This document shows positions 6,001 through 62,175 of a stretch of 64,000 nucleotides of DNA, piece by piece. The position numbers and the translations under genes are program-made. Origin of the DNA: Hydrogenophilus sp. (GTDB lineage Bacteria; Pseudomonadota; Gammaproteobacteria; Burkholderiales; Thiobacillaceae); assembly GCA_020692235.1 (NCBI GenBank), contig JAIMKU010000003.1:358-64357 (forward strand). The letters are read 5' to 3'. The stretch's first letter is position 1. Each line of letters begins with the position of its first letter. A model generated the notes under the pieces. The model had not been told where the DNA came from and ran no database searches. It saw nothing but the letters and a program-made list of their open reading frames with translations.

Positions 6001-6712
6001 GGCCCCGTTGCACTCGCGTGGCAGGATCGCCGGCGCTCGTCTCGCTCAAGCGTTGGCGCAGGTCGGGAAGGCCGGCGCCGTCCAGGGTGACATGGCGCAA
6101 GGGGTCCACTTGGTAGGCGGTAACCCATTGCACCCGCGCCTTGAGATTTTGTACCACCAGCTTGATCGGGGCCTTGCCCGGCTCCGCCATGGCCTGCTCG
6201 TTGGCCGCCACGCTGATGCGGCCGAGGTCGTTGTAGAACTCCACCTTGCCGCTGAATACCGAGAGCCGGGAACGGCCGTCTTCGGCCACCTCCATTTCCC
6301 AATCGGTGCCACGCAGACCGGCGACAGCCGTAGGCGTTTGCCAGGTAAATTGCCTGGGCGGGGTCTTGGACTGCACCCAGGCCCGGCCGAGTAGTTGACG
6401 AAACGCGGTCTGTCCGGGGGAACGCGGTTTGGCCTGAACCGCTTGAATTTCAAGTACGCTCTTTTCGTTCAGGCGAACCTGGGTATGGTCGTCGAGCAGC
6501 AGGGCCACGCGGCTGTGCGGGCCGGTGCGCACGGTCTGTCCAGGGCGCAGTCTTTGCTTGACGGCAACCGCCTGCCAGGCCGCGCCTGCCTCGCTCAGAT
6601 ATTCCACATGGCCTTGCGGATCGACGACCGTGGCCGCGCCGGCGATGCCCTCGCCGTGCGCGGCAAGACTCGACAACAGGCCAATCAGCAGGGCAACGAT
6701 AGGGAGCGACAT
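3098..6712 (-). CDS. Exported FecR-domain / TPR-repeat / TonB-receptor-like beta-barrel protein
   Basis: 1204 aa; signal peptide, FecR-like N-terminus (TGPHSRVALLLDD...TPTAVAGLRGT), many TPR-like helices, beta-strand-rich C-terminus ending in YRF. Confidence 0.75.
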   Translation of the reverse strand: MSLPIVALLIGLLSSLAAHGEGIAGAATVVDPQGHVEYLSEAGAAWQAVAVKQRLRPGQTVRTGPHSRVALLLDDHTQVRLNEKSVLEIQAVQAKPRSPGQTAFRQLLGRAWVQSKTPPRQFTWQTPTAVAGLRGTDWEMEVAEDGRSRLSVFSGKVEFYNDLGRISVAANEQAMAEPGKAPIKLVVQNLKARVQWVTAYQVDPLRHVTLDGAGLPDLRQRLSETSAGDPATRVQRGRILADLGRWRDAENEFGAARQARPEDAEAMLGLAYVALHDNDAKGATAWLQRAQSLKASEAWVYADIGRLILSQDLGAALAVLQVTTRRYDLKQPAPWLLLSDLAVQEGDIAAALEQIRQGLQRFPDDPRLYAQQARLLLLDDRAIEAARVAEQAIDADLASYDAWLARADIARREGDVAAAFPAYGLAIGLKPDDDRAWYGRGAAYGEREYIREARADLIQALALNPTGIGYQGELATLETLANEFAQAENTYRAALANNPADFVALTGLGVLELKLGHPRQALDAFLKAGVMEPRYARAHVYGAVAYYQMGEIGAAQQELARASELDDKDPLPYFMAAMIHSDLMRPAAAVEAARQAMHRLPFLKSLNQLANDRQGSANLGQAFAFMGMEEWARGYAQESYDPLWAGSHLFLADRYNGLFSKNSELFQGLISDPTVFGAGNRFKSLIPGPANNLNLGLRYTRSDRLDGFSPQVEYSGYRVEPKPMAWYLGYENVNWNLLDRPYDLNVFTAAFGIKPNYDNGVFVFADGSRQDSRPVGNLPGFGDYDVADRLDSRRLDIGFSHKLAPTSQVWLKAGYFSSAEDTGGTLGGDPIVSRVAVSVPEFAFRHGFETEGGHQIGWGADYGLRRTDGLLRSDLFASSGLPGFWIQHADNRIRERSLDVYVSDVYRFAPKLVLDWAIAYQQQDRQADSLVTDFILDTPGSPVPVAERQNIRRISPRVGLVYRANEQLRLRFAWQNWLRPSTFSSLGPVASAGIPLDDRLVSRGGELNRVRVQGEWESNPDTFLTGYLDYRDIDNHRLGIRPFTVSELESLNKLRPRDYGSLMRGDSYEFVDTPDYAGGTIRSAGIAVNRILNSEWAAIARYSYTDSHNSTDAALAIPYLPRHTIAVGATWVNPDGWYVAGLLTHRTRRYQDEANVMPLRAGLGGALDVFRESRDKHWLARFSSNDMFDRNRATQYTMELNYRF

Positions 6713-6764
6713 GATCGAGTAGCCGCTTGGTTGGGGTCAGCAGCAACCGGAACCGGCGCCAAGC

Positions 6765-7183
6765 TCAACGCATGTTCTTGAGGGCATACTGGCTGACCTG
6801 ATTCTGTTGGGCCAGGGCGCGGCCCAGCACGGTGGCCAAGTTGCCGCTGGCCTTACCCTTGAGCAGACGAAGGGCGGTCAGGTCTTTGCTGAGTTGATCC
6901 ACCGCCGGGGTTAGCGTTGTCGGCGCGGCAGCGGGAGAAGACGACTTGAGCTGGATGAATTTCTCCAGGCTCTGGCCGGCCTTGTCCAGGGCCTTGGTGT
7001 ATTGGGGCACCAGCGGATTGGCGGCATAGGGTTTGACCGCGGCCAGATAATCGACCCTGGCCTTTGCCCACTGTCCCCGTACTTGAGTCGCCACGTCCGC
7101 CGAGGTGGCGGCCCAGGCCGCCAAGGGCGCCGCCAAACCAAGCAGCAGGGTCATAAGGATGAGGCGGACGGTATTTTTTTCAT
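6765..7183 (-). CDS. Small secreted helical hypothetical protein; probable start is out of frame by 1 nt in an A7 run
   Basis: GGAG RBS then ATG at 7183 followed by A7. An A8 run would give MKKNTVRLILMTLLLGLAAPLAAWA (signal peptide) in frame with the ORF ending at 6765. Confidence 0.6.
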
Positions 7184-7231
7184 GGCGATGACTCCAGGTT
7201 CCCAAACGGTTATAGGGGCGGAGCGGCCAGC

Positions 7232-7299
7232 AAAAAAACCGAGTTTCGCCCGCCCCCGTTACAGCCTACCCTCGATTGGGCTCAGGGGGCGGTTTTTTT
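7232..7299. terminator. Intrinsic-terminator-like hairpin downstream of icd
   Basis: CCGCCCCC (7250-7257) / GGGGGCGG (7285-7292) stem flanked by A7 (7232-7238) and T7 (7293-7299). Confidence 0.6.
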
Positions 7300-7322
7300 C
7301 AAGACGCATGGGGTCTTTGTGC

Positions 7323-9572
<2,250 letters not shown>

Positions 9573-45565: not shown

Positions 45566-46521
45566 GTGAACTTGTCCAATACCAGGCTGGCCGCAAGCAA
45601 TACAGCCAGCAGATGCGCGGCGCCAATGGTGGCGCGGATGGCCGGCACCAGCCGCGCGGGCTGGGCCGCGAATCGGCGTAGGTCGTTGGCCGCCTTGAAG
45701 GCCGGCCACCCGGCCGCCAGGGCGATCAGGCTCCAGAGCGGCAACCGGCCAGCGGCGATCAGGCCGATCAGCCAGCCCATCGCCAACAGCAGGATCAGAC
45801 CATAGCCATGAGCGGCCTGGTCGGGTGCCAGCCGGACCACCCAGTGGCGCTTGCCGACCGCCAGATCGGCGGCCCGGTCGGGAAACTGGTTCAGGTACAA
45901 AACATTGGTCACCATCAAGGCATAGGGCAAACCGATGAGCCAGGGCGCGACATGGTAAGCGCCGCGCTGAACGAAATCGGCGCCGACGACGATCAGCAGA
46001 AAGCCGGTCGCGACGCAAAGCTCGCCGAGACCCCGGCTATTGAGTTGCAGGGGTGGCGCGGAATAGGCCCAACCGATGGCGAGACCGGCCAGGCCGATCC
46101 AGAGCAGACCGGCGCCGGCATGACCCAGCAGCCACTGGCCGCCCAGCATCACCGCCAGGAACAGCGCCGCACCAAAGAGCAAGGTCTGGCGGGCGCTCAA
46201 GACGCCGTTCTGGATAAACCGGGAGCCCCCGGTAAATGGAAACAGGCGGTCGCTGTTCAGCTCATCGCTACCGTTCAGATGATCGTAGTAGTCGTTCAGT
46301 ACATTGACCCCGGCGTGGGCCAGCAGGGCCAGCAAAAAGCTAACGGGCGCAGTAAGGGCATTGAACGAAATACCGGAATGCCAGGCGCTGGCCAAGCCGA
46401 GCAAGACGCCGACCAGGGTGATGCTCAGAAAGGCCGGCCGGGTGGCCAGAAAATAACGCAGCAGGGGATTGCCCAGCCGCTCCAGGCTGGGTTCGGCGGC
46501 CAGCGCGGCGTTCTTGTTCAT
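45562..46521 (-). CDS. UbiA-family prenyltransferase, MenA-like
   Basis: 319 aa; [32 protein letters not shown]; many TM helices. Confidence 0.78.
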
Positions 46522-47036
46522 GACAGCCGGCCCGCCCGCCGCCGCCGACCGGCGGTGACCAGCGCGCCCAGCCCCATGCCACCGTGGGCGTGGCAGATCG
46601 CGCAGGCAAGGGCATCGGCGGCGTCGGCGCTGGGCGCGCCGGGCAGATTCAGCAGCCGAGTCACCATGTGGATCACCTGTTGCTTGTCGGCATGGCCATT
46701 GCCGACCACCGCCTGTTTGATTTGCAGCGCGGTGTACTCGAACACTGTTTGTCCGGCATGGGTCAGCGCCGCGATGGCCGCACCGCGCGCCTGGCCGAGC
46801 AACAGGGTGGATTGGGGATTGACGTTGACGAACACCTTTTCCACCGCCGCCGCCTCGGGGTTGAAGGCCGCCAGCACCTCGCCGATGCCGGCGAAGATGG
46901 TGGCGATCCGCGCCGGCAATTCATCGCCCTGGGTACGGATGACGCCGCTGGCGACGTAGGTCAAGCGCTGGCCCTCCTTGTCGATGACCCCATAGCCGGT
47001 TACCCGCAGGCCGGGGTCGATGCCCAGGAGGCGCAA
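46518..47036 (-). CDS. ruvC: Crossover junction endodeoxyribonuclease RuvC
   Basis: [40 protein letters not shown]. Confidence 0.95.
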
Positions 47037-47043
47037 GGCCGCA

Positions 47044-47772
47044 TTACTCCGGCAAAAGGGCGGAGATATAAGCCTCCTGCACGTCGTCGAGGTCGTCGAG
47101 CATGTCGAGCATCTTCTGGAACCGCACCGCATCGTCGCCCTCGACCTCGGTCTCGTTCATGGCCTTCATGGTGACCTCGGCCACTACCGGCTTGAGACCG
47201 GCCTTCTCCAGCGCCTCCTTGACGACCGTCAGATCGCCGGTGGGCGCGGTAATGACCTCGATGGAACCGTCATCGTTGCCGATGACATCCTCGGCGCCCG
47301 CCTCCAAGGCCACTTCCATGACCTTGTCCTCATCGGCGCCCAGTTCCAGGATGATCTGGCCGCAGTGCTTGAACTGGAACGCCACGCAACCGTCGGTGCC
47401 CATGTTGCCGCCATACTTGGCCAGGGCGTGACGGACGTCGGCCACGGTACGCACCCGGTTGTCGGTCAGGCAATCGACGATCACCGCCGCGCCACCGGGG
47501 CCATAGCCTTCGAAGCGGATTTCCTCGTAGCTGACGCCTTCCAGCTCGCCGGTGCCCTTCTTGACCGCCCGATCAATGTTGTCGTTGGGCATGTTCTCGG
47601 CCTTGGCCTTGTCGATGGCCAGGCGCAGCCGCGGGTTGAAGTTGGGGTCGCCGCCGCCCATCTTGGCTGCGACGGTGATTTCCCTGGCGTAGCGGGAAAA
47701 TATCTTGCCGCGCTTTTCGTCCTGACGCCCCTTACGGTGCTGAATGTTCGCCCATTTGCTATGTCCGGACAT
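47044..47772 (-). CDS. yebC: YebC/PmpR-family protein
   Basis: [20 protein letters not shown]. Confidence 0.96.
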
Positions 47773-51446: not shown

Positions 51447-52655
51447 ATGTCCCATCTCGTCAAACCCCACGGTGGTGGTGAACTCAAACCCCTGCGGCTC
51501 GAAGGCGCCGCCCGAAAAACCGAACTAGCCCGCGCCAAGGCGCTCAAGCAGGTGAAGATGTCCTCCCGCGAGACCGGCGACCTCATCATGATGGGCATCG
51601 GCGGTTTCACCCCGCTCGACGGTTTCATGACCAAGGCCGACTGGCAAGGCGTCTGTGATGGGATGAAAACAAGCAGCGGCCTGTTCTGGCCCATCCCGGT
51701 GACCCTTTCGACCGACGACGAGTCCATCAAGGACGGCGACGACATCGCCTTGGTCGGCGGTGAGAGCGGCGAGATCATGGGCACCATGAAGGTAACCGAG
51801 AAGTACACCATCGACAAGGCCCACGAGTGCATGCAGGTCTACAAGACCACCGACATCAAGCACCCCGGCATCAAGATGGTGATGGCCCAGGGCAAGTACA
51901 ACCTGGCCGGCCCGGTCAAGGTCCTGTCCGATGGCGGCTTCAAGGCCAAATACGGCGCGCAATTCATGACCCCCGCCGAGACCCGCGCCGCCTTTGAAAA
52001 AATGGGCTGGTCGAAGGTCGCCGCCTTCCAGACCCGCAACCCGATGCACCGCTCGCACGAATACCTGGTCAAGATCGCCATCGAGACCATGGATGGCGTG
52101 CTGATACACTCCCTGCTGGGCGCCCTGAAGCCAGGTGACATCCCGGCCGAGGTCCGTTCCGAGGCGATCTCCACCCTGGTCGAAAATTACTTCGCTCCCA
52201 ATACCGTCATTCAGGCCGGCTATCCGCTGGACATGCGCTATGCCGGTCCGCGTGAAGCCCTGTTGCACGCGCTGTTCCGCCAGAACTACGGCTGCTCGCA
52301 CCTGATCGTCGGTCGCGACCACGCTGGCGTGGGCGACTACTACGGCCCCTTCGACGCCCAGAAAATCTTCGACGAGATTCCCAAGGGCTCGCTGGAAACC
52401 CAGAACATGAACATCGACTGGACCTTCTGGTGCAAGAAGTGCGGCGGCATGGCCTCGCGGCGTACCTGCCCGCACACCAAGGATGACCGCATCCTGCTGT
52501 CCGGCACCAAGGTGCGCGCGATGCTATCCGAAGGCCAGGACCTGCCGGTCGAATTCAGTCGTCCGGAAGTCGCTGCGGTGCTCAAGAAGTACTACGCCAG
52601 CCTGACCAAGGAACAAAACGTCAAGATCGAACTCAAGGGCCACTCGGCCGCTTGA
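51447..52655 (+). CDS. sat: Sulfate adenylyltransferase (dissimilatory type)
   Basis: [25 protein letters not shown]...CPH. Confidence 0.96.
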
Positions 52656-52827: not shown

Positions 52828-53301
52828 ATGCCTACCTATGTTCGTACCGACAAGTGCGACGGTTGCAAGGGCCAGGACAAGACCGCTTGCATGTACATCT
52901 GCCCGCACGACCTGATGAAGCTGGACAAGGATGGTTCGGAAACCGGTCACGCCATGAAGGCCTTCAACCAGGAACCCGATCAGTGCTGGGAATGTTATTC
53001 CTGCGTGAAGATTTGCCCGCAGCAGGCCATCGAAGTCCGCCACTACGCCGACATCGTTCCTCTGGGCGGTTCAGTTCAGCCTCTGCGCGGTTCCGACTCC
53101 ATCATGTGGACCATCAAGTTCCGTAATGGCACCCTGAAGCGCTTCAAGTTCCCGATCCGGACCACCCCCGAGGGCTCCATCGATCCCTACGCCGGCAAGC
53201 CCATGCCCAAGATAGCAGACATCGAAAAGCCTGGCTTCTTCACCAAGGGCTACGCCAAGGGCTATCGTGCCGGCAACCCGGCCGAATTGATACGCAAGTA
53301 A
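52828..53301 (+). CDS. aprB: Adenylylsulfate reductase beta subunit
   Basis: CDGCKGQDKTACMYICPHDLM, CWECYSCVKICP, WTIKFRNG..KRFKFPIRTT. Confidence 0.96.
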   Translation: MPTYVRTDKCDGCKGQDKTACMYICPHDLMKLDKDGSETGHAMKAFNQEPDQCWECYSCVKICPQQAIEVRHYADIVPLGGSVQPLRGSDSIMWTIKFRNGTLKRFKFPIRTTPEGSIDPYAGKPMPKIADIEKPGFFTKGYAKGYRAGNPAELIRK

Positions 53302-53320: not shown

Positions 53321-55330
53321 ATGGCTGATTTTTCTAATCCAGAAGTAGTTCAGGAAGAAGTTGACATCCTGATAATCGGTGGCGGTATGGCCTCTTGCGG
53401 CGCCGCCTATGAAGTCGTGCGTTGGGCCGAAGCCGCGAAAGCGGAAACCGGCGTTGATCTGAAGATCAAGTTGGTCGACAAGGCCGCCATTGACCGTTCC
53501 GGCGCCGTGGCTCAAGGCCTGTCCGCCATCAACACCTACATCGGCGATACGCAAGACCCCGCCGACTACGCTCGTATGGTCTCCAATGACTTGATGGGCA
53601 TCACCCGCGACGACCTGACCTATGACTGCGGTCGCCACGTCGACGACTCCGTGCACATGTTTGAAGAGTGGGGCCTGCCCATTTGGAAGACCGACGAAAA
53701 CGGCGAGCGTCACGACGGCGCCCAGGGCATGACCCCGCTGAAGGACGGCGGCAAGTGCGTACGTTCCGGCAAGTGGCAGATCATGATCAACGGCGAATCC
53801 TACAAGTGGATCGTCGCCGAGGCCGCCAAGAAGGCACTGGGTCTGGATCGCATTCAGGAACGCGTTTTCATCGTTCACCTGATCAACGACAAGAACGACC
53901 CCAACCGCATCGCCGGCGCAGCCGGTTTCTCCGTCCGCGAGAACAAGGTCTACATCTACAAGGCCAAGGCCATCCTGCTGGCCGCCGGCGGTTGCGTGAA
54001 CATCTTCCGTCCCCGTTCCGTTGGCGAAGGCCAAGGTCGTGTCTGGTACGCGGTGTGGAATGCCGGTTCGACCTACGCCATGGCTGCCGAGGCCGGCGCC
54101 GAGCTGACCATGATGGAAAACCGCTTCGTGCCCGCCCGCTTCAAGGACGGTTACGGCCCGGTCGGTACCTGGTTCCTGCTGTTCAAGGCTCAGGCCACCA
54201 ACGCCTTCGGCGAGGCCTACATGGCCAAGAACAAGGACATGCTGAACGACTACCCGCCCTATGGCCAGGCTGCCGTTCCCGCTTCCTGTCTGCGTAACCA
54301 CCTGATGTTGCACGAAATGCAGGAAGGTCGCGGCCCGATATGGATGGACACCATCACGGCCCTCGCCAAAATGCGCAAGAAACTGACCCCACGTGAAGTG
54401 AAGAACCTCGAGGCGGAAGCCTGGGAAGACTTCCTCGACATGTCCGTCGGCCAATGCGGCATCTGGGTCGGCGAAAACGTCGATCCGGGAAAGAAGAAGT
54501 CCGAGTTGATGCCGACCGAGCCCTACCTCCTGGGTTCGCACTCCGGTTGCTGTGGCATGTGGGTATCCGGCCCGACCGACGTCGGCGCGCCAACCAAGGA
54601 AGAGTATAGCGGCGTCCCCGCTCACCTGCCGAGCGGCTGGAGCTGGGGCTATCGTAGCATGACCACCGTCAAGGGCCTGTTCACGGCCGGTGATGGCGTC
54701 GGTGCCTCCGGCCACAAGTTCTCCTCCGGCTCCCATGCCGAAGGTCGTATCGCGGCCAAGGGCATGGTCAAGTATTGCTTGGACAACAAGGGCTTCAAAC
54801 CGGAATTCAACGAAACCCCGGAGCAAATTGCCGAGGTCATCTGGAAGCCGGTACGTAACTACCTGGAGTTCAAGGACTACACGACAGCGATCGATGTCAA
54901 CCCCAACTACATCACCCCGAAGATGTTGCAGTTCCGTCTGCAAAAGATCATGGACGAATATGTAGCCGGTATCGCCACCTACTACAAGACCAACAACGTC
55001 ATGCTCGACATCGCCGAAGAGAAGTTGGGTTTCCTGAAGGAAGACGCTCAGAAGATGCGTGCCAAGGACCTGCACGAACTGCTGCGCGCCTGGGAAAACT
55101 ACCACCGCATTCTGACGGCCGAAGCCCACATGAAGCACATCCAGTTCCGCGAAGAAAGCCGTTATCCCGGCTTCTACTACCGCATGGACAAGAACTTTGT
55201 CGATGAGAAAAACTGGCACTGCTTCGTCAACTCGATCTATGACAAGAAGACCCACACCTGGACCTGCTTCAAGCGCAAGCACGTCGACCTGGTCGACAAG
55301 TCCAAGCTGTTCAAGGCCGCTGCTCACTAA
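53321..55330 (+). CDS. aprA: Adenylylsulfate reductase alpha subunit
   Basis: RSGAVAQGLSAINTY, WQIMINGESYK, RFKDGYGPVG, EPYLLGSHSG, ESRYPGFYYR. Confidence 0.97.
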   Translation: MADFSNPEVVQEEVDILIIGGGMASCGAAYEVVRWAEAAKAETGVDLKIKLVDKAAIDRSGAVAQGLSAINTYIGDTQDPADYARMVSNDLMGITRDDLTYDCGRHVDDSVHMFEEWGLPIWKTDENGERHDGAQGMTPLKDGGKCVRSGKWQIMINGESYKWIVAEAAKKALGLDRIQERVFIVHLINDKNDPNRIAGAAGFSVRENKVYIYKAKAILLAAGGCVNIFRPRSVGEGQGRVWYAVWNAGSTYAMAAEAGAELTMMENRFVPARFKDGYGPVGTWFLLFKAQATNAFGEAYMAKNKDMLNDYPPYGQAAVPASCLRNHLMLHEMQEGRGPIWMDTITALAKMRKKLTPREVKNLEAEAWEDFLDMSVGQCGIWVGENVDPGKKKSELMPTEPYLLGSHSGCCGMWVSGPTDVGAPTKEEYSGVPAHLPSGWSWGYRSMTTVKGLFTAGDGVGASGHKFSSGSHAEGRIAAKGMVKYCLDNKGFKPEFNETPEQIAEVIWKPVRNYLEFKDYTTAIDVNPNYITPKMLQFRLQKIMDEYVAGIATYYKTNNVMLDIAEEKLGFLKEDAQKMRAKDLHELLRAWENYHRILTAEAHMKHIQFREESRYPGFYYRMDKNFVDEKNWHCFVNSIYDKKTHTWTCFKRKHVDLVDKSKLFKAAAH

Positions 55331-55486: not shown

Positions 55487-56434
55487 ATGCAAGACTACGA
55501 CGAGCGTTTCAAGAACCTGGCCAAGGACGCCCCCTTCGAGGCCAACCCGGTCATTCCAACGATGCTGGAAGGCGACGCGCCACTCCAATTCCGCTGTCAT
55601 CGCGGCGTCAAATGCTGGAACGCCTGTTGCAGCAACATCGACATCACCCTGACGCCCTATGACATAGTGCGCCTGAAAAACCATCTTGGTCTCTCATCCG
55701 GCGAATTTTTGCAAAAGTACACCGTGCCCTACGAGATCGACAAGGATGGCACCCCTGGGGTCAAACTGCGCAGCGTGGACGGCGGTTCCGCCTGTCAGTT
55801 TATGGTCGAGGAAGGTTGCAGCGTCTATGGCGACCGGCCCACCGCGTGCCGCTATTACCCCGTCGCCCTGCTATCGGTGCGCCGCTCCGACGAATATGTC
55901 GATCGTCTTTCATTCGCGAAGGTGACCGAAAAAACCTGCTTCGGCCACCAGGAACCGGACACCCAGACCATCGACGAATATCGCGCGGACCAGGGTGCGG
56001 TCGAATACGACGAGAAGGGCCGTGGCTGGCGGCAACTGATCCTCAAGAAAAAATCCGCCGGCCCCGCCGTCGGCAAGCCGCCCATGATCTCCAAGCAGTT
56101 GTTCTTCATGGCCAGCTATGACCTCGATCGCTTCCGCGCCTTCGTCATCAGCGAGTCATTCAACAAGACCTACGATATCCCGGTCGCCGAGATGGCCGAG
56201 CTGATCGCCGACGATGAAAAGTTGCTGGCCTTCGGCGACCGGTTCCTGCGCCAGGTACTGTTCAACGAACAGTCGATTACCGAGAAGGACGGCGCCTACG
56301 AGGCCCGGGTTGAGCGTCTCAAGGCCAAGGCCGAACAGATCCGTGCCGAGTTTGAGGCCAACCGCGACCAGATCGAAAACGAAAAATACTGCGCTCCGCC
56401 TGGCCAGCCCGGCGACTGCGGCTGCGGCGATTAA
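55487..56434 (+). CDS. YkgJ/FliB-family cysteine-cluster protein
   Basis: CHRGVKCWNACC, LTPYDIVRL, ACQF, CSVYGDRPTACRYYP, CFGH; C-terminal DCGCGD. Confidence 0.88.
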   Translation: MQDYDERFKNLAKDAPFEANPVIPTMLEGDAPLQFRCHRGVKCWNACCSNIDITLTPYDIVRLKNHLGLSSGEFLQKYTVPYEIDKDGTPGVKLRSVDGGSACQFMVEEGCSVYGDRPTACRYYPVALLSVRRSDEYVDRLSFAKVTEKTCFGHQEPDTQTIDEYRADQGAVEYDEKGRGWRQLILKKKSAGPAVGKPPMISKQLFFMASYDLDRFRAFVISESFNKTYDIPVAEMAELIADDEKLLAFGDRFLRQVLFNEQSITEKDGAYEARVERLKAKAEQIRAEFEANRDQIENEKYCAPPGQPGDCGCGD

Positions 56435-56747
56435 TGCCCCGTACCTTCGCACCCGAGGCCCACTACATCCTGAGCGAGCCCTATTACGAGCCGCTCGGCG
56501 ATGAGATCGTCATCTTCGAGGCGGCCTACCGGAACGCCCTGCCAATTCTGCTCAAAGGCCCAACCGGCTGCGGCAAGACCCGGTTCATGGAATACATGGC
56601 CTGGCGGCGAGGCTGGATGCCGATACCGAGGTGGAAGCCAGTCTGGCCCTGCTCGATGCCGCCTATGCCCTGCCCGACTTCCGGCCCTTTTGCTATCAAG
56701 GCGCGCTAAATGAGAACTCATGGCAGCGGATCAACGTCGCCCGTTAG
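56434..56747 (+). pseudogene. Truncated CbbQ/NorQ-type AAA+ ATPase joined to a probable vWA-partner fragment
   Basis: EPYY...LLKGPTGCGKTRFMEYMAWR, then homology stops at ~56607. Another frame gives RLDADTEVEASL...PFCYQGAL..., ending with TAG at 56747. Confidence 0.75.
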
Positions 56748-56893: not shown

Positions 56894-58648
56894 TCATGCA
56901 ATATCCGGGTTAGTTGCCAATACCGCCGCCCAAGACCGCCGATCTTCCGGGTACCGGGTGATGGCCCGAACCAGATCGCTCCGCCATTGCGGCCAATGGC
57001 TCTGGATGCGCGCGTAACAGGGCGAATCGGCGCCGAAATTGTGTTCCATATTGGCGCTGAAGCGCTTGAAGTCTGCGACTGCGACGGTGTCTATCCGCGA
57101 CCGATTCCACCACTGAGCCGGGTCGTTCAGAAGCGTCTTCAACTGGTCGAGTTGTTCAATGATGGCCCGATGTTTGGCCGCGTATTTTTCCAGCATCTCG
57201 GTATGCACCGCCTCGACCACCTCGGTAGTTACGGTCTCGGCCAAGGCCCGTTCCGGGAAGCCTGGCGACGTCAGCCGTTGCAGCGAAAACAGCATCACGT
57301 CGCCGTAGAACTGGCGTTCGAATTCGCCGCACAGTTCGATGGCCTCGGCCTGGACCTCGATACCGGGCCGAAACTCGGAGCGCCCGATGACCTCCACCGT
57401 CCGCTTGTGCAGCATGGGCAGGTTGGCTGACACGAAACGGCCGCCGATCTCCGACCGGACAATCCGGCCCAGGCTCGGGCCCAGCATCCGCAAGCGCAAA
57501 TCGGCAAAGGGGATGAAGTACTTCAGCGCCTCCGGCCGGAAGACGTAGTTGCCGGTATACACCGTGCGCGCCGGCTGGATGCTGGCAAGCGCCGCGAGTG
57601 GCGGGTAATAGGAGATACGGGTGGGATGCTCGCCGTAGAAGAAGCGCTTGAGCCGGCTGGCGAAGTGCGTAAAGCAATCCATGTCGCTATGCGCGCCGGC
57701 CAGGGTGCAGCGGTAGCGATAGGCGTCGCCGGCCGGTTTGAAACCGAACAGGTCGGCCATGTCGTGGTAGGCCGCCTCGCCCACGCGGCGCGACTCGAAG
57801 CGATGCTGGCCGCAGGGGCCTTGGCCGCCGCTGACGGCCATCCGACGCAGGAAGTCGATCACATCGTCGAGGAAGTTGCCGGCCATCACGGCGGGTGAAA
57901 CGGGCGGATCACCGACCACCTTGCCAGTCAACATCAGGGCGTCCGTTTGGCTGAATATCGCATCCAGCGCGTGGAAAAAGCTCAGGCCATAGACATCCTT
58001 ATCGCCTTCATCGGTGCTGACCTTGACCTTGAATTCCTGGTCGCTGTCGATGGCGTGGAACAACAGCCGCTCGGTGCCCCCCCACAGCGCGTTCAGCTTC
58101 AGGAAAGCGATATTGCGCATGACCGCCGAGCCCTTGTGCGCGAACGATTCCCGCGTTGCATGGCCCAAAATACCGGCCAGCCGTTCCCTTTCGTCCACGC
58201 TCAGCGAGTCCAGTAGTTCAAGTTGTTCGCTCAAGCCGAAATAGAGCGTATCGAGGCCTTGTCCGCTGCACTGGCAGGCAAGCGCCCGATGGGCTGCGAT
58301 ATTGGCTGCGTCGCGGCTATCGTCAGCAATGAACACCGCAACCTTTAAATACCGGCCGTCGCGCTGCCCGCCATAACCGAATAGCCGGCACAGTTCGAGC
58401 AGGCTATCGAGACAGATCTGTAAATGTCGCGGCCGATCGGCCACCGGGATGACAATAACGAAACGGTAGCGGTGGTCCTCACCCTGAGCCGCGATTTGCC
58501 GTTCCAGTTCCCGGTAGGCGGCTTGATAGGCGGGCAACAGCGCCTCGTTCAGGCCATCGCGCCAAAGCGCTTTTTCGATGGCAGCGATGGCCGTCTGTTG
58601 CGCCGCAATGCCTGGGTTATCGGTTCGACCGGTAGTCCGGGAAGGCAT
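56894..58648 (-). CDS. Hypothetical protein with GT-A (GT2-like) glycosyltransferase motifs
   Basis: 584 aa; VIVIPVADRPRHL..CLDSL, FIADDS, HKGSAVMRN, IDSD. Start overlaps the upstream gene by 32 nt. Confidence 0.6.
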   Translation of the reverse strand: MPSRTTGRTDNPGIAAQQTAIAAIEKALWRDGLNEALLPAYQAAYRELERQIAAQGEDHRYRFVIVIPVADRPRHLQICLDSLLELCRLFGYGGQRDGRYLKVAVFIADDSRDAANIAAHRALACQCSGQGLDTLYFGLSEQLELLDSLSVDERERLAGILGHATRESFAHKGSAVMRNIAFLKLNALWGGTERLLFHAIDSDQEFKVKVSTDEGDKDVYGLSFFHALDAIFSQTDALMLTGKVVGDPPVSPAVMAGNFLDDVIDFLRRMAVSGGQGPCGQHRFESRRVGEAAYHDMADLFGFKPAGDAYRYRCTLAGAHSDMDCFTHFASRLKRFFYGEHPTRISYYPPLAALASIQPARTVYTGNYVFRPEALKYFIPFADLRLRMLGPSLGRIVRSEIGGRFVSANLPMLHKRTVEVIGRSEFRPGIEVQAEAIELCGEFERQFYGDVMLFSLQRLTSPGFPERALAETVTTEVVEAVHTEMLEKYAAKHRAIIEQLDQLKTLLNDPAQWWNRSRIDTVAVADFKRFSANMEHNFGADSPCYARIQSHWPQWRSDLVRAITRYPEDRRSWAAVLATNPDIA

Positions 58649-60248
58649 TCTTGTCCAGCATGATTTCGATGAGGTTGATCGAGCCGGTTAGATCGGCCTT
58701 GGCGAACAGGGCATCGACATCGGCCTCCGCCTCGATCTTCCAGTGGCGGATGCCGAACGCCAGGGCCAGATAGGCAAAGTCCGGGTTGACGAAGTCGCAA
58801 TCGATGTAGCGCCCGCCATAAAGCTGAGACTGGTTCTTGCGGATCAGGCCCATGGCGGCGTTGTTGATGACCACGATATTGAGCGGAATGGCGTAATTGA
58901 CCGCGGTCATGATCTCCATGCAGCACATCTGGAAGCCACCGTCGCCGAGGATGGCGAAGGTTGGCCTGGGCTTGGCGAAGCGCGCCCCGATGGCTGCCGG
59001 GATGGCATGGCCAAGCGAGGAAATCCCGGAGTTGGGGAAATAGCGGTTGCTGAGCGCCGACTTGAAAAAACGCTGAGCGAAGATGATGTTGTCATCGAAG
59101 ATCTGGACATCCTCCTGGAACCGTGCCGCCAGCCTGGTAAAAAGATGCTCCATCAAGCGAAATTTTGCCGGGCTGGACGAGGCCGAGTGGCCGGCCAGCC
59201 GGTCGAGCGACTTGCTTGCCATAGCGGCCGTTTCGACCGCCGCCAGGAGGTCGTCCAGGACGGCGCCGAGATCGCCGTGGATGGCCAGATCGGCCTTGAA
59301 CACCTTTTCCAGTTGCCCCTCGTCGATGTCCACCTGAGCGATCTTTTTGCCGGCCAAAAGTGTGCCGTCCCACAGGTAGCTGGTGCGCTCGTTGAAGCTT
59401 GCCCCAAGGAATATGACCAGATCGGCATATTCGACGATATAACGGTAGGCCCGGCCATCCGAGGTCACCCCCAGGCTACCTAGCGACAGCCCGGCACCTT
59501 CGCTAATCACGCCCTTGGCCTTGAGGCTGGTGGCGACCGGGATATTGAGCGCCTCGCTCAAATGGGCGACGGCCGCCTGCGCGCCCGCCTGAACGCAGCC
59601 ATGACCGGCAATAATGACCGGGTAGCGCGCCTCGGCGATCAGAGCGGCCAGTTCAGAGGCCGGGGCGTGGCTTTTAAGCGCCGCCATAGGATGAAAATCA
59701 ATGCCGTCCAGCAGGTTATCCGGGACCTGTTCTTTCTGAACGTTATAGGGCACGCTGAGCAGCACCGGCCCGGGGGCCGCCGAGAGCAGAATCCGGGCTG
59801 CCCGGTTCAGCACCTGACCAAGGTAATCGGTGCGTTCGACGACCTTGTGATAGCGGGTAATGCCGCCGAACAGGGCCGTCTGATCGATGGCGCCGCCCTC
59901 GCCCGAGCTTTCCTGCAAACCGCCCTTACCGAAGATGTAGGTCGAGGTCTCGCCGGTGACGATCAGTATCGGTTGCTTGTCGGCATAGGCATTGGCGATG
60001 CCGGTCACTAGATTGGTAGCCCCCGGTCCGGCCGTAGCGAGGCAGGCGCCGATCCCGCCCGAGACGCGGGCGAAGCCGCCGGCCATGAACGCCGCGCCCT
60101 GCTCGTGCTTGGCCAAAACGCTCTTGATCGGCGAGTCATACAGGCAGTCGTAGACGGGCAGGATATGGGCGCCCGGAATACCAAAAACGTGGCTCACGCC
60201 GAGACGTTCCATGAACCGGACCAGCAATTCGCTGACTGTAGTTTTCAT
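58617..60248 (-). CDS. ThDP-dependent enzyme, acetolactate-synthase-like superfamily
   Basis: FGIPGAH, KHEQGAAFMA, TAGPGATN, GDGGFQM...NN. Start set at MKTTVSE. Confidence 0.88.
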   Translation of the reverse strand: MKTTVSELLVRFMERLGVSHVFGIPGAHILPVYDCLYDSPIKSVLAKHEQGAAFMAGGFARVSGGIGACLATAGPGATNLVTGIANAYADKQPILIVTGETSTYIFGKGGLQESSGEGGAIDQTALFGGITRYHKVVERTDYLGQVLNRAARILLSAAPGPVLLSVPYNVQKEQVPDNLLDGIDFHPMAALKSHAPASELAALIAEARYPVIIAGHGCVQAGAQAAVAHLSEALNIPVATSLKAKGVISEGAGLSLGSLGVTSDGRAYRYIVEYADLVIFLGASFNERTSYLWDGTLLAGKKIAQVDIDEGQLEKVFKADLAIHGDLGAVLDDLLAAVETAAMASKSLDRLAGHSASSSPAKFRLMEHLFTRLAARFQEDVQIFDDNIIFAQRFFKSALSNRYFPNSGISSLGHAIPAAIGARFAKPRPTFAILGDGGFQMCCMEIMTAVNYAIPLNIVVINNAAMGLIRKNQSQLYGGRYIDCDFVNPDFAYLALAFGIRHWKIEAEADVDALFAKADLTGSINLIEIMLDKNAFPDYRSNR

Positions 60249-60398
60249 CTCATTCCCGCCCAGCTCCGCGCGTGCCCCGTTGCTGCGGGCTTTTTGACAA
60301 GACGGTAAGGCAAAGTCTGGATTTGAGCATAAGCCGGACCGTAGCGAAACCCGCTGCGGATTCATTAATGAGGATTAAGGGGCGGCGGCCAGCCGTAT

Positions 60399-60740
60399 TC
60401 AGACCTTCTTCAAAAAACAGGCCTTAAGCATGAAGCTGCCGGCATCCATCTTGCAGTCCACTTCATGGTCGCCGCCAACCAGGCGGATGCTCTTGACCTT
60501 GGCGCATTGCTTAAGCGTGATCAACGAGCCCTTGACCTTGAGGTCCTTGATTAGCACCACCGAGTCGCCGTCGCTCAGTACCGTACCGTTGGCATCCTTG
60601 ACTACGGCGCCCGCATCGGCGTCGGCGTGCGCCGCCTGGGCCATCGGCCACTCATGGCCGCAGTCGGCGCAAACATAGTTGTCGCCGTCCGGGTAGGTGT
60701 TCTCCATGGCGCATTGTGGGCAGGGTTGGATAGTGGACAT
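60399..60740 (-). CDS. yjdM: PhnA/YjdM zinc-ribbon protein
   Basis: CPQC...YVCADCGHEW, KDANG..L.DGDSVVLIKDLKVKG. Confidence 0.92.
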   Translation of the reverse strand: MSTIQPCPQCAMENTYPDGDNYVCADCGHEWPMAQAAHADADAGAVVKDANGTVLSDGDSVVLIKDLKVKGSLITLKQCAKVKSIRLVGGDHEVDCKMDAGSFMLKACFLKKV

Positions 60741-60861
60741 GATTACCGTCAAACTCCGAGTGATTCGAACAAGGCCGAAGGATACCCGATCCCGCCCTGG
60801 CCGGCGCGGCGCCTTATAATTCCGACAATCCCTGCCATTGGCCCAATCAAGGACGTCCATC

Positions 60862-62175
60862 GTGCAATCCCATAAAGACACGCTCATCGGCAAGATTCGC
60901 GACAAGACCGCAGTAATCGGCGTGGTCGGGCTGGGCTACGTCGGCCTGCCGCTGGCGCTGCGCTACAGTGAAGCGGGCTTCCGGGTGCTCGGCATCGACA
61001 TCGACCCGGCCAAGATCGACACCCTGACGCGGGGCGAAAACTATATCGAACACATCCCGGTCGAGGCCATCCGCGCCGCCAACGCCAGCGGCTTTGACTG
61101 CACCACCGATTTCGCTCGCGCCCATGATGCCGATGCACTCATTATTTGCGTACCGACGCCGCTCAACCGGTTCCGCGAGCCAGACCTGAGCTTCGTCCTC
61201 AATACCACCGAGGCCCTGACCCCGCACTTGCGGCCAGGGCAAATCCTGTCCCTGGAAAGCACCACCTATCCCGGCACCACCGACGAGGAACTTCTGCCCC
61301 GGATCGAAGCGCGCGGCCTCAAGGTGGGTAAAGAGGTGTTCCTCTGCTTCTCGCCGGAGCGAGAAGACCCAGGCAATCCGGATTTTGTCACCCGCACCAT
61401 TGCCAAGGTCTGCGGCGGCGTCACACCGGCCTGTCTCGAAGTGGGACTGGCGCTCTACGGCCAGGCCATCGATCAGGTGGTGCCGGTCAGTTCGACCCGC
61501 GTCGCAGAGATGACCAAGCTGCTGGAAAACATCCACCGCGCCGTTAATATCGGCCTGGTCAACGAGTTGAAGATCGTCTGCGACCGGATGGCCATCGACA
61601 TCCACGAGGTGATCCGCGCGGCCGCCACCAAACCGTTTGGCTTTGTGCCCTACTACCCCGGCCCCGGCCTGGGCGGCCACTGCATCCCCATCGACCCCTT
61701 CTACCTGACCTGGAAAGCGCGCGAATACGGCGTCCATACCCGGTTCATCGAGCTGGCCGGCGAGGTCAACAGCCACATGCCGGAATGGGTGCTAGGCAAG
61801 ATCGGCGACGCCCTGAACGTGCGCGGCAAGACCATCAAGGGCTGTCGAGTGCTGGTCCTGGGCATCGCCTACAAAAAGAACATCGATGACACCCGTGAAT
61901 CGCCCTCGGTGGCGATGATGGAGCTGCTACGCACCAAGGGCGCAGAGGTTGCCTACAGTGACCCCCATGTGCCGGTCTTCCCGAAGATGCGCGAACACCA
62001 TTTCGATTTGCGCAGCGTGCCGCTCGATCCGGAGAGCGTCGCGGGCTACGACGTGCTGCTCCTGGCTACCAACCACGATGCCTTCGATTACCCCATGCTC
62101 GGCCTTTATGCCAAGCTGATCGTCGATACCCGTGGCGTTTATATGGAGCCGGCGCCCAATATCGTCAAGGCTTGA
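60862..62175 (+). CDS. Nucleotide-sugar dehydrogenase (UDP-GlcNAc 6-dehydrogenase, WbpA-like)
   Basis: [44 protein letters not shown] start with AAGGA RBS. Confidence 0.9.

Follow-up and report, generated by a model that had tools for sequence, protein, structure and literature searches.

Introduction

The acetolactate synthase (ALS)-like superfamily of thiamine diphosphate (ThDP)-dependent enzymes contains the large subunits of acetohydroxyacid synthase (AHAS), and YerE is a member of it as well. Among the enzymes of the glycosyltransferase (GT)-A fold, the compatible-solute synthases are soluble proteins that glycosylate small α-hydroxy-acid acceptors. In the present work, we examine a pair of overlapping genes in which these two kinds of protein architecture are brought together. 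The pair lies in a 64,000-nucleotide stretch of the Hydrogenophilus sp. assembly GCA_020692235.1 (contig JAIMKU010000003.1, positions 358 to 64,357 of the forward strand), called the window below, and it consists of the gene of an ALS-like ThDP enzyme and the gene of an unnamed 584-residue protein, called X584 here.

The described family that comes closest to X584 in predicted fold is GT75, which comprises nucleoside diphosphate (NDP)-sugar mutases and reversibly glycosylated polypeptides (RGPs). The GT75 mutase MtdL consists of a GT-A domain, an extra core and a C-terminal helix domain (PMC9937993). Its DDD motif occupies residues 109-111, the nucleophilic Arg159 is autoglycosylated and has Asp195 and Asp260 as partners, and further residues of importance are Ser228/Gln229, Arg257, the Mn ligand His287, Arg289 and His292 (PMC9937993).

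An earlier reading of the window, made from the sequence alone and referred to below as the original prediction, proposed that the pair forms a two-gene pathway. We will show that the pair is co-inherited in sulfur-oxidising bacteria and is in most loci followed by a third gene, and that X584 can be compared with GT75 residue by residue. On this basis we give about an even chance to a reading in which sulfur-oxidising Beta- and Gammaproteobacteria have an uncharacterised small-molecule pathway in the cytoplasm with the pair as its invariant core, where a ThDP-derived acyloin or oxo acid would be joined by X584 to an NDP-activated group and then tailored.

Results and Discussion

The overlap of the ALS-like gene with the 584-residue gene, already pointed out in the original prediction, is borne out by the coordinates of the open reading frames (ORFs) and by the sequence (Table 1). 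X584 starts at an ATG within the ThDP codons ..AAG AAT GCC.., and the ThDP stop codon TAA follows 32 nt further on. An overlap of exactly this length is the commonest arrangement among related loci (35 of 78), and translational coupling of the two genes is probable. The start of the upstream gene requires some comment. Position 60248, where the original prediction let the gene end, is the ATG of Met40 in the longest ThDP ORF (58617-60365) and is preceded by a purine-rich GGGCGGGAA stretch. Since the homologues begin to align at this methionine, the shorter reading is likely, and the upstream protein has most likely 543 residues. The third-position GC content of both genes is the same as that of their neighbours. 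In the surroundings of the operon, a scan with Rfam gave no riboswitch match, no promoter-like site was found, and terminator-like sites are not commoner than in shuffled sequences.

The original prediction had named gene-neighbourhood analysis as one way to check the pair, and the result is clear. The ThDP gene and X584 are adjacent in 79 of 81 loci (80 named loci and the window), both exceptions being cut at a contig end. Among 41 relatives, 22 are positive for X584, of which 21 have a ThDP orthologue and one a fragmented copy, while none of the 19 X584-negative relatives has the ThDP orthologue. The ThDP gene stands directly upstream of X584 in 18 of 20 loci from the relatives; in two genomes (G017 and G020) both genes are present yet unlinked. 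At least 563 species genomes carry the pair, and the two genes are co-inherited as a very strongly conserved unit. A fusion of the two proteins was also considered, on account of open frames of ~1070 residues in three genomes (G005, G007, G010), and was rejected: a stop in the ThDP frame is present in every locus, and the long frames are upstream extensions within high-GC genomes. A homologue search for longer proteins (1023-2920 residues) found no fusion either, which is weak evidence.

The ThDP enzyme contains the N, M and C domains that define the superfamily of the pyruvate oxidase (POX)/ALS type, namely PF02776 (TPP_enzyme_N, E 1e-36), PF00205 (E 4e-34) and PF02775 (E 1e-31). It shares with the AHAS large subunits (IlvB/IlvI, TIGR00118; PDB 6lpi) and with BbmA the three-domain ThDP architecture, the catalytic glutamate of an HEQ motif and the GDGGF..NN ThDP motif. 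Its best NCBIfam match is TIGR00118, where it differs from true AHAS in scoring only 346.7 bits against a cut-off of 538.35, and it falls under every other NCBIfam cut-off too. The canonical ilvI of the same genome (855.9 bits to TIGR00118) is located on contig C27 and followed by ilvH, the sole small-subunit gene (TIGR00119) of the genome, and the identity between this IlvI and the window enzyme is 29%. The ThDP gene is flanked by yjdM and X584, and neither a gene for a small subunit nor another ilv gene was found near it in the window, which agrees with what the original prediction had stated. Because ilvIH sits on another contig, the role of housekeeping acetolactate synthase does not fall to the ThDP enzyme. 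Among solved structures its closest relative is BbmA (PDB 8x3x), which aligns end to end with E 3e-88 and has in common with it an FGKG(G/A)LQES insert that is missing from AHAS; next comes E. coli AHAS I (E 9e-70). A literature search on the function of BbmA and CsmA found no paper.

An ordinary acetolactate synthase standing by chance next to an unrelated glycosyltransferase is therefore a very improbable explanation of the locus. The best match to TIGR00118 speaks for it, while the score far under the cut-off, the canonical ilvIH elsewhere, the low identity to IlvI and the identical phyletic pattern and adjacency of the ThDP gene and X584 speak against it, and it is refuted as far as computation allows.

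We now turn our attention to X584. The window protein has no match in Pfam, in NCBIfam or, by phmmer, among the PDB sequences, and a profile of its family gave nothing meaningful when searched against the PDB with hmmsearch. The family is a large one. Clustering at 90% identity yields at least 1780 groups, almost all of them labelled 'hypothetical', and at 50% identity there are 286 representatives; no distant relatives with a name are among them. An AlphaFold2 model built from 59 diverse members has a pLDDT of 93.4 and a pTM of 0.93, and Foldseek relates it to folds of the GT-A/GT2 type (E ~1e-5). With VIA-align, the top match is the GT75 mutase MtdL (7xpu; Z 18.8, 294 residues, rmsd 2.8), followed by rice UAM2 (8cid; Z 17.0 over 284 residues). 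Both matches span residues 58-584 of X584, and that to MtdL covers 294 of its 371 residues. Ordinary GT2 structures give Z 14-16 with fewer aligned residues or a worse rmsd. In a protein-language Atlas the nearest named family is DUF6271 (0.93), on which no literature was found, followed by GT2 and RGP (0.88). No hydrophobic segment of X584 is long enough for a membrane helix, and the protein is thus predicted to be soluble.

The original prediction had spoken of GT2-like motifs. This stands as far as the GT-A fold is concerned, which is supported by the structure prediction, but not at the level of sequence: the GT2 profile PF00535 has no match to the window protein at E ≤0.01 and only weak ones to 16 of 59 relatives (best E 9e-4, under gathering quality), and the predicted fold is closest to GT75. 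The three outcomes that it had named as fatal to its proposal, namely no predicted GT-A fold, an unconserved pair and an ordinary acetolactate synthase, were not what we found. The structure prediction gives a GT-A fold with high confidence, conservation of the pair is very strong, and the ThDP enzyme is not an ordinary acetolactate synthase.

The comparison with GT75 can be carried to the level of residues. Invariant or nearly so in the X584 family are D109/D110, R178/N179, D201-S-D203, G246-D247, D296, H341, R344, R387, H414 and R416. The D201-S-D203 motif, which corresponds to the DXD metal motif of GT75, follows a β strand, and D203 is invariant. The sequence of MtdL (residues 81-313) was taken from an alignment with a true bacterial RGP. 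In profile alignments with RGPs made by hhalign, R178-N179 is reproducibly paired with R90-N91 of MtdL (the R-N motif of RGPs) and D201-S-D203 with D109-D111 (DDD). A second run also paired G246-D247-P with the G192-D193-P of the GDPD motif. Of the whole residue map, the block of R-N and DXD and the GDP motif alone are reproducible. Further downstream, R387 and, 27 residues later, H414-x-R416, where strand 405-414 ends, fit by hand the spacing of MtdL R257 and H287-x-R289. When the C-terminal halves of X584 and GT75 were aligned, hhalign gave a probability of 0.4%.

The two families differ in the element that carries the mutase nucleophile. In an alignment of 34 RGP sequences, H147-R148-G149 is invariant and belongs to an H-R-G-(F/Y)-P loop between DXD and GDPD, which holds the nucleophilic arginine (R159 of MtdL). 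The corresponding segment of X584 is ~40 residues shorter, and between D203 and G246 no arginine is conserved at ≥90%, the next invariant one, in sequence order only, being R344. The arginine partners are likewise replaced, MtdL D195 being aligned to Pro249 by hhalign and D260 to Gly/Pro in the manual alignment. X584 has instead a ~90-residue insert after the GDP motif (256-345), which bears the invariant D296, H341 and R344. The GT75 profile PF03214 finds nothing in the genome of the window, while the same profile does find a true RGP in genome G692, and when the X584 family is compared with 34 prokaryotic RGPs, hhalign arrives at a probability of 8.5% with E 0.004, over residues 101-235 only. 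Judged by its sequence, X584 is not a member of GT75, as both the family profile and the search for the catalytic arginine failed.

Taken as a whole, X584 resembles GT75 (MtdL, UAM2, PF03214) in the order of N-terminal GT-A domain, extra core and C-terminal helix domain, in the R-N nucleotide motif, the DXD and the G-D-P, and possibly in a His-x-Arg at a strand end. It differs in an identity of at most 16%, in a length greater by ~200 residues, which include a two-helix N-terminal extension besides the insert, in having no colinear nucleophilic Arg loop and no equivalent of MtdL D195, and in its constant association with a ThDP enzyme, a partner that GT75 proteins lack. The model thus looks like a GT75-type NDP- and Mn2+-binding scaffold without the colinear mutase nucleophile. 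Also among the fold matches are the mannosyl- and glucosyl-3-phosphoglycerate synthases and mannosylglycerate synthase (Z 11.6-13.7). These differ in scoring under GT75 and many GT2 structures, and they have neither sequence similarity to X584 nor a ThDP partner.

While the original prediction described a pathway of two genes, this is not borne out by the related loci, most of which have a third one. In 114 loci, the gene after X584 encodes a PaaK-like adenylate-forming ligase in 54 and a protein of ~180 residues in 26; in 23 nothing recognisable follows, and 11 end with the contig. The ~180-residue family has weak matches to Sulfotransfer_3 in 4 of 27 members. The model of the protein has a pLDDT of 92.5, and VIA-align matches it to the sulfotransferase domain of an olefin synthase (OLS; 4gox, Z 13.6) and to tyrosylprotein sulfotransferase (TPST, Z 12.9), with P-loop kinases at ~10. 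Foldseek gives TPST, heparan sulfate 3-O-sulfotransferase (3-OST) and CurM sulfotransferases with E 6e-5 to 1e-3, and the predicted fold is thus that of a sulfotransferase. In 16 of the 26 loci of this type a convergent Methyltransf_24 gene stands beside it. In a sample of 400 genomes of the class, the sulfotransferase-like gene occurs in 15, of which 11 also have X584, and the two genes are adjacent in 10 of these 11.

Some other genes were seen near X584. In three Thiobacillus loci (L073, L074, L077) X584 and the PaaK-like ligase are separated by a gene with a PIN domain (vapC-like). In some Hydrogenophilaceae (L091, L092, L123) the gene after X584 is one with DUF924, and one protein of 763 residues (P0101) matches both X584 and DUF924, which may reflect a fusion or an artefact of gene calling.

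In the window itself, no third gene follows X584, its place being taken by a truncated cbbQ remnant, and neither a PaaK-like ligase nor a remnant of one was found in the window or anywhere else in the genome. The genome (G000) does have a sulfotransferase-like gene with a convergent Methyltransf_24 gene, located on contig C11 (~46485-47726, or 6485-7726 of locus L141), with an M48 peptidase gene on one side and the end of the contig on the other. The encoded sulfotransferase-like protein of 184 residues is 62% identical to that of locus L125. Its best folds are the OLS and CurM sulfotransferase domains (4gox, 4gbm) and the TPSTs, with which it shares a P-loop-like NTGRCGSTT, but it is shorter by ~100 residues and its use of 3′-phosphoadenosine 5′-phosphosulfate (PAPS) is only predicted. 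An adenosine 5′-phosphosulfate (APS) kinase gene on contig C3 could supply this donor.

The X584 phylogeny sheds some light on this arrangement. In a FastTree phylogeny of 109 sequences, the window protein forms a clade with those of G008, G003 and G009 and of a Parasulfuritortus metagenome-assembled genome (100% local support), and this clade is nested within a fully supported clade of 58 rows that is otherwise of the ligase type. Within the GTDB genus, X584 and the sulfotransferase occur in all 12 genomes and the ligase in none, and other members have a distant X584 of the sulfotransferase type, with the sulfotransferase adjacent. The presence of two distant X584 lineages in one genus suggests that the core pair has been replaced by horizontal transfer. 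The simplest reading would be that a ligase-type core pair replaced the resident one here and lost its ligase, while the resident tailoring pair stayed elsewhere in the genome. The C11 locus has no flanks in common with the sulfotransferase-type modules of the same genus, so that no in-place deletion of a core is shown. The size of the genome, 1.8 Mb at 97% completeness compared to 2.3-3.9 Mb in the genus, fits with loss, rearrangement and the gene remnants seen in the window. Such a replacement of the core, together with retention of the tailoring pair, would suggest an exchangeable core with variable tailoring.

As regards distribution, the carriers with a name comprise symbionts and chemolithoautotrophs that oxidise sulfur or iron, and nearly all of them are sulfur oxidisers; they include Thiobacillus, Sulfuricella, Sulfuritalea, Sulfurisoma, Sedimenticolaceae, Thiohalomonadales and a tubeworm symbiont. 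In the class sample, aprA is present in 19 of the 20 carriers, which represent 17 GTDB families, compared to 89 of 379 non-carriers. The sole carrier in which aprA was not found is a genome of 74% completeness. In this sample, the module is nested within the aprA-bearing genomes, of which ~17% carry it. No literature on the module in sulfur oxidisers was found.

The features of the window around the pair are collected in Table 1.

Table 1. Positions of the gene pair and of its neighbours in the window.
Feature	Position	Strand	Description
sat	51447-52655	+	Context, convergent on the module; Pfam/NCBIfam family assignment
aprB	52828-53301	+	Context, convergent on the module; Pfam/NCBIfam family assignment
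aprA	53321-55330	+	Context, convergent on the module; Pfam/NCBIfam family assignment
YkgJ-type CxxCxxCC protein	55487-56434	+	315 aa, PF03692, directly after aprA
Truncated cbbQ (RuBisCO activase) remnant	56446-56613	+	tblastn 64% identity to residues 17-72 of a 281-aa CbbQ
X584 gene	56894-58648	-	584 aa, unnamed protein with predicted GT-A fold, GT75-like architecture, soluble
Overlap of the ThDP and X584 reading frames	58617-58648	-	32 nt, probable translational coupling
ThDP gene	58617-60248	-	543 aa, ALS/AHAS superfamily, BbmA-like; longest ORF reaches 60365
yjdM/phnA zinc-ribbon gene	60399-60728	-	Upstream of the ThDP gene; Pfam/NCBIfam assignment
Nucleotide-sugar 6-dehydrogenase	60838-62175	+	TIGR03026, 405 bits; under the WecC and TviB cut-offs

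The block of sat, aprB, aprA and the CxxCxxCC gene adjoins the module also in loci L068, L104, L120 and L127 and partly in L130 and L137, and aprA is less than 8 kb from X584 in genomes G084, G371 and G204. The PF03692 protein of this block may be an unrecognised partner of APS reductase. In Thiobacillus, the ligase-type module is followed by a second PF03692 protein (215 residues), along with genes for MOSC and DUF1415 proteins. The cbbQ remnant, which lies between the CxxCxxCC gene and X584, has a weak AAA_5 P-loop match, and several loci of Rhodocyclaceae have intact cbbQ-cbbO beside the module. On the other side, yjdM/phnA stands beside the module only in the window and in L059, L060 and L066, that is, in the small clade of the window itself. 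The nucleotide-sugar dehydrogenase that the original prediction placed two genes away is real; it is divergent from the pair, with yjdM/phnA between them. The prediction had called this link one of proximity only, and it stays weak, since only 4 of 81 loci have an orthologue close to the module (the window, L104, L132 and L133, which belong to four different lineages).

Returning to the function of the pair, the pathway that we consider to have an even chance could proceed as follows. The BbmA-like ThDP enzyme would decarboxylate a 2-oxo acid and make or trim a C−C bond, to yield an intermediate of the α-hydroxy-ketone (acyloin) type. X584, as a soluble Mn2+- and NDP-binding GT-A enzyme, would then couple this intermediate to an NDP-activated group, for which a sugar is the most likely candidate. 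The subsequent tailoring would depend on the lineage, being performed either by a small sulfotransferase of the PAPS type and an O-methyltransferase or, alternatively, by a PaaK-like adenylating ligase, such that the product would be sulfated and methylated in some lineages and acylated via the ligase in others. The genome at hand would use a core from a ligase-type lineage without its ligase, the sulfotransferase and methyltransferase of C11, and the APS kinase for the supply of PAPS. Our best guess for the product is a glycoconjugate that derives from an acyloin or an oxo acid and is sulfated and methylated afterwards.

It is important to point out that several results weigh against this pathway. 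The type of reaction that the ThDP enzyme catalyzes (carboligase, decarboxylase or lyase) is left open by its similarity to BbmA. X584 is detected neither by the GT2 nor by the GT75 profiles, its hhalign probability against the RGP alignment is just 8.5%, and the mapping of R387 and H414-x-R416 onto MtdL is manual, hhalign of the sub-regions lending it no support. The best fold matches of the model are mutases and not transferases, and glycosyl transfer by X584 is an assumption. There is no characterised homologue near enough to either protein for a transfer of function to the pair. Moreover, no NDP-sugar biosynthesis gene was found among the conserved neighbours annotated, and the dehydrogenase is present in only 4 of 81 loci. 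Finally, the association with aprA is ecological, and as the genomes are related, a Fisher test overstates it.

Other explanations have to be compared with the acyloin pathway. Starting with the known chemistry of the superfamily, the ThDP enzyme could be of the YerE type and add a pyruvate-derived C2 branch to an NDP-4-keto-sugar, with X584 transferring the branched sugar. The membership of the window enzyme in the same ALS-like superfamily, the conceptual link between a ThDP enzyme and a nucleotide sugar, the predicted NDP-binding GT-A fold and the dehydrogenase in four lineages are consistent with this. However, that dehydrogenase would yield uronic acids and not 4-keto sugars, and in the recurrent neighbour clusters annotated, which are part of all clusters, neither an NDP-hexose 4,6-dehydratase nor a nucleotidyltransferase was found. 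In addition, X584 is soluble and has no transmembrane segment, no polysaccharide or lipid-carrier genes are linked to it, and BbmA, which comes closest to the ThDP enzyme among solved structures, is not known to act on sugar nucleotides. The YerE-type enzymes differ in context, as no genes for NDP-4-keto-sugars are among the conserved neighbours annotated, and we consider this mechanism unlikely. Of the two products suggested in the original prediction, the branched sugar has accordingly little support, while the acyloin-derived glycoconjugate is the best available, though inferred, reading.

The fold of X584 leads to another option, in which it is an NDP-sugar pyranose-furanose mutase or a self-glycosylating GT75-like protein that uses a different arginine, for example the invariant R344 in GEHPTR, and supplies a furanosyl donor or acts as a glycosyl carrier. 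The top two structural matches, GT75 mutases over nearly the whole chain, and the retained DXD and GDP motifs argue for it, and the invariant H341/R344 and D296 of the insert could reach the active site. This option is nevertheless quite improbable, because the arginine of the H-R-G-(F/Y)-P loop has no conserved counterpart in D203-G246, its two Asp partners are aligned to Pro249 and Gly/Pro, and PF03214 finds nothing in this genome. X584 could also act on something other than a sugar, using APS, PAPS or an acyl-adenylate; the module would then produce an acyloin in sulfated, sulfonated or acylated form, with a connection to the sulfite/APS pool of the cytoplasm. Here, the nesting of the module in aprA-bearing genomes (19 of 20), the sat-aprBA block that repeatedly adjoins it, and the adenine-nucleotide mixed anhydrides used by both types of third gene, the PAPS-type sulfotransferase and the adenylate-forming ligase, are favourable. 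On the other hand, GT-A enzymes with a DXD motif and Mn2+ are known to bind NDP-sugars and not APS, and since only ~17% of the aprA-bearing sample genomes carry the module, it is not required for Apr function. A non-sugar role is therefore also rather unlikely.

If the acyloin pathway is carried further, one arrives at a more specific proposal, which we put forward as tentative and would not expect to hold in full. The product may be a new soluble metabolite specific to sulfur oxidisers that use the cytoplasmic sulfite/APS route, sulfated and methylated in this and many other genomes. Its scaffold would be assembled on a ThDP-derived acyloin by a GT-A enzyme of a new catalytic type, a GT75-like protein that has lost the mutase arginine and gained an insert with His, Arg and Asp residues of its own, and the metabolite could have a role in sulfur oxidation or symbiosis.

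Conclusion

While both proteins fall into known superfamilies, the databases and the literature searched contain no description of the X584 family, of its association with a ThDP enzyme or of the pathway. New here are the residue-level comparison of X584 with GT75, the finding that the carriers are nested within the aprA-bearing genomes, and the observation that this genome has a module that is split and has probably been exchanged. X584 represents a large family without a name and without a Pfam or NCBIfam model, in sulfur oxidisers of environmental importance. That the core pair and the tailoring genes are separable and exchangeable between lineages argues for a modular logic of scaffold plus tailoring. 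If the product is found, the biochemistry of chemolithoautotrophs would gain a new metabolite and probably also a type of reaction that is new for the GT-A/GT75 fold, and thousands of 'hypothetical proteins' could be annotated.

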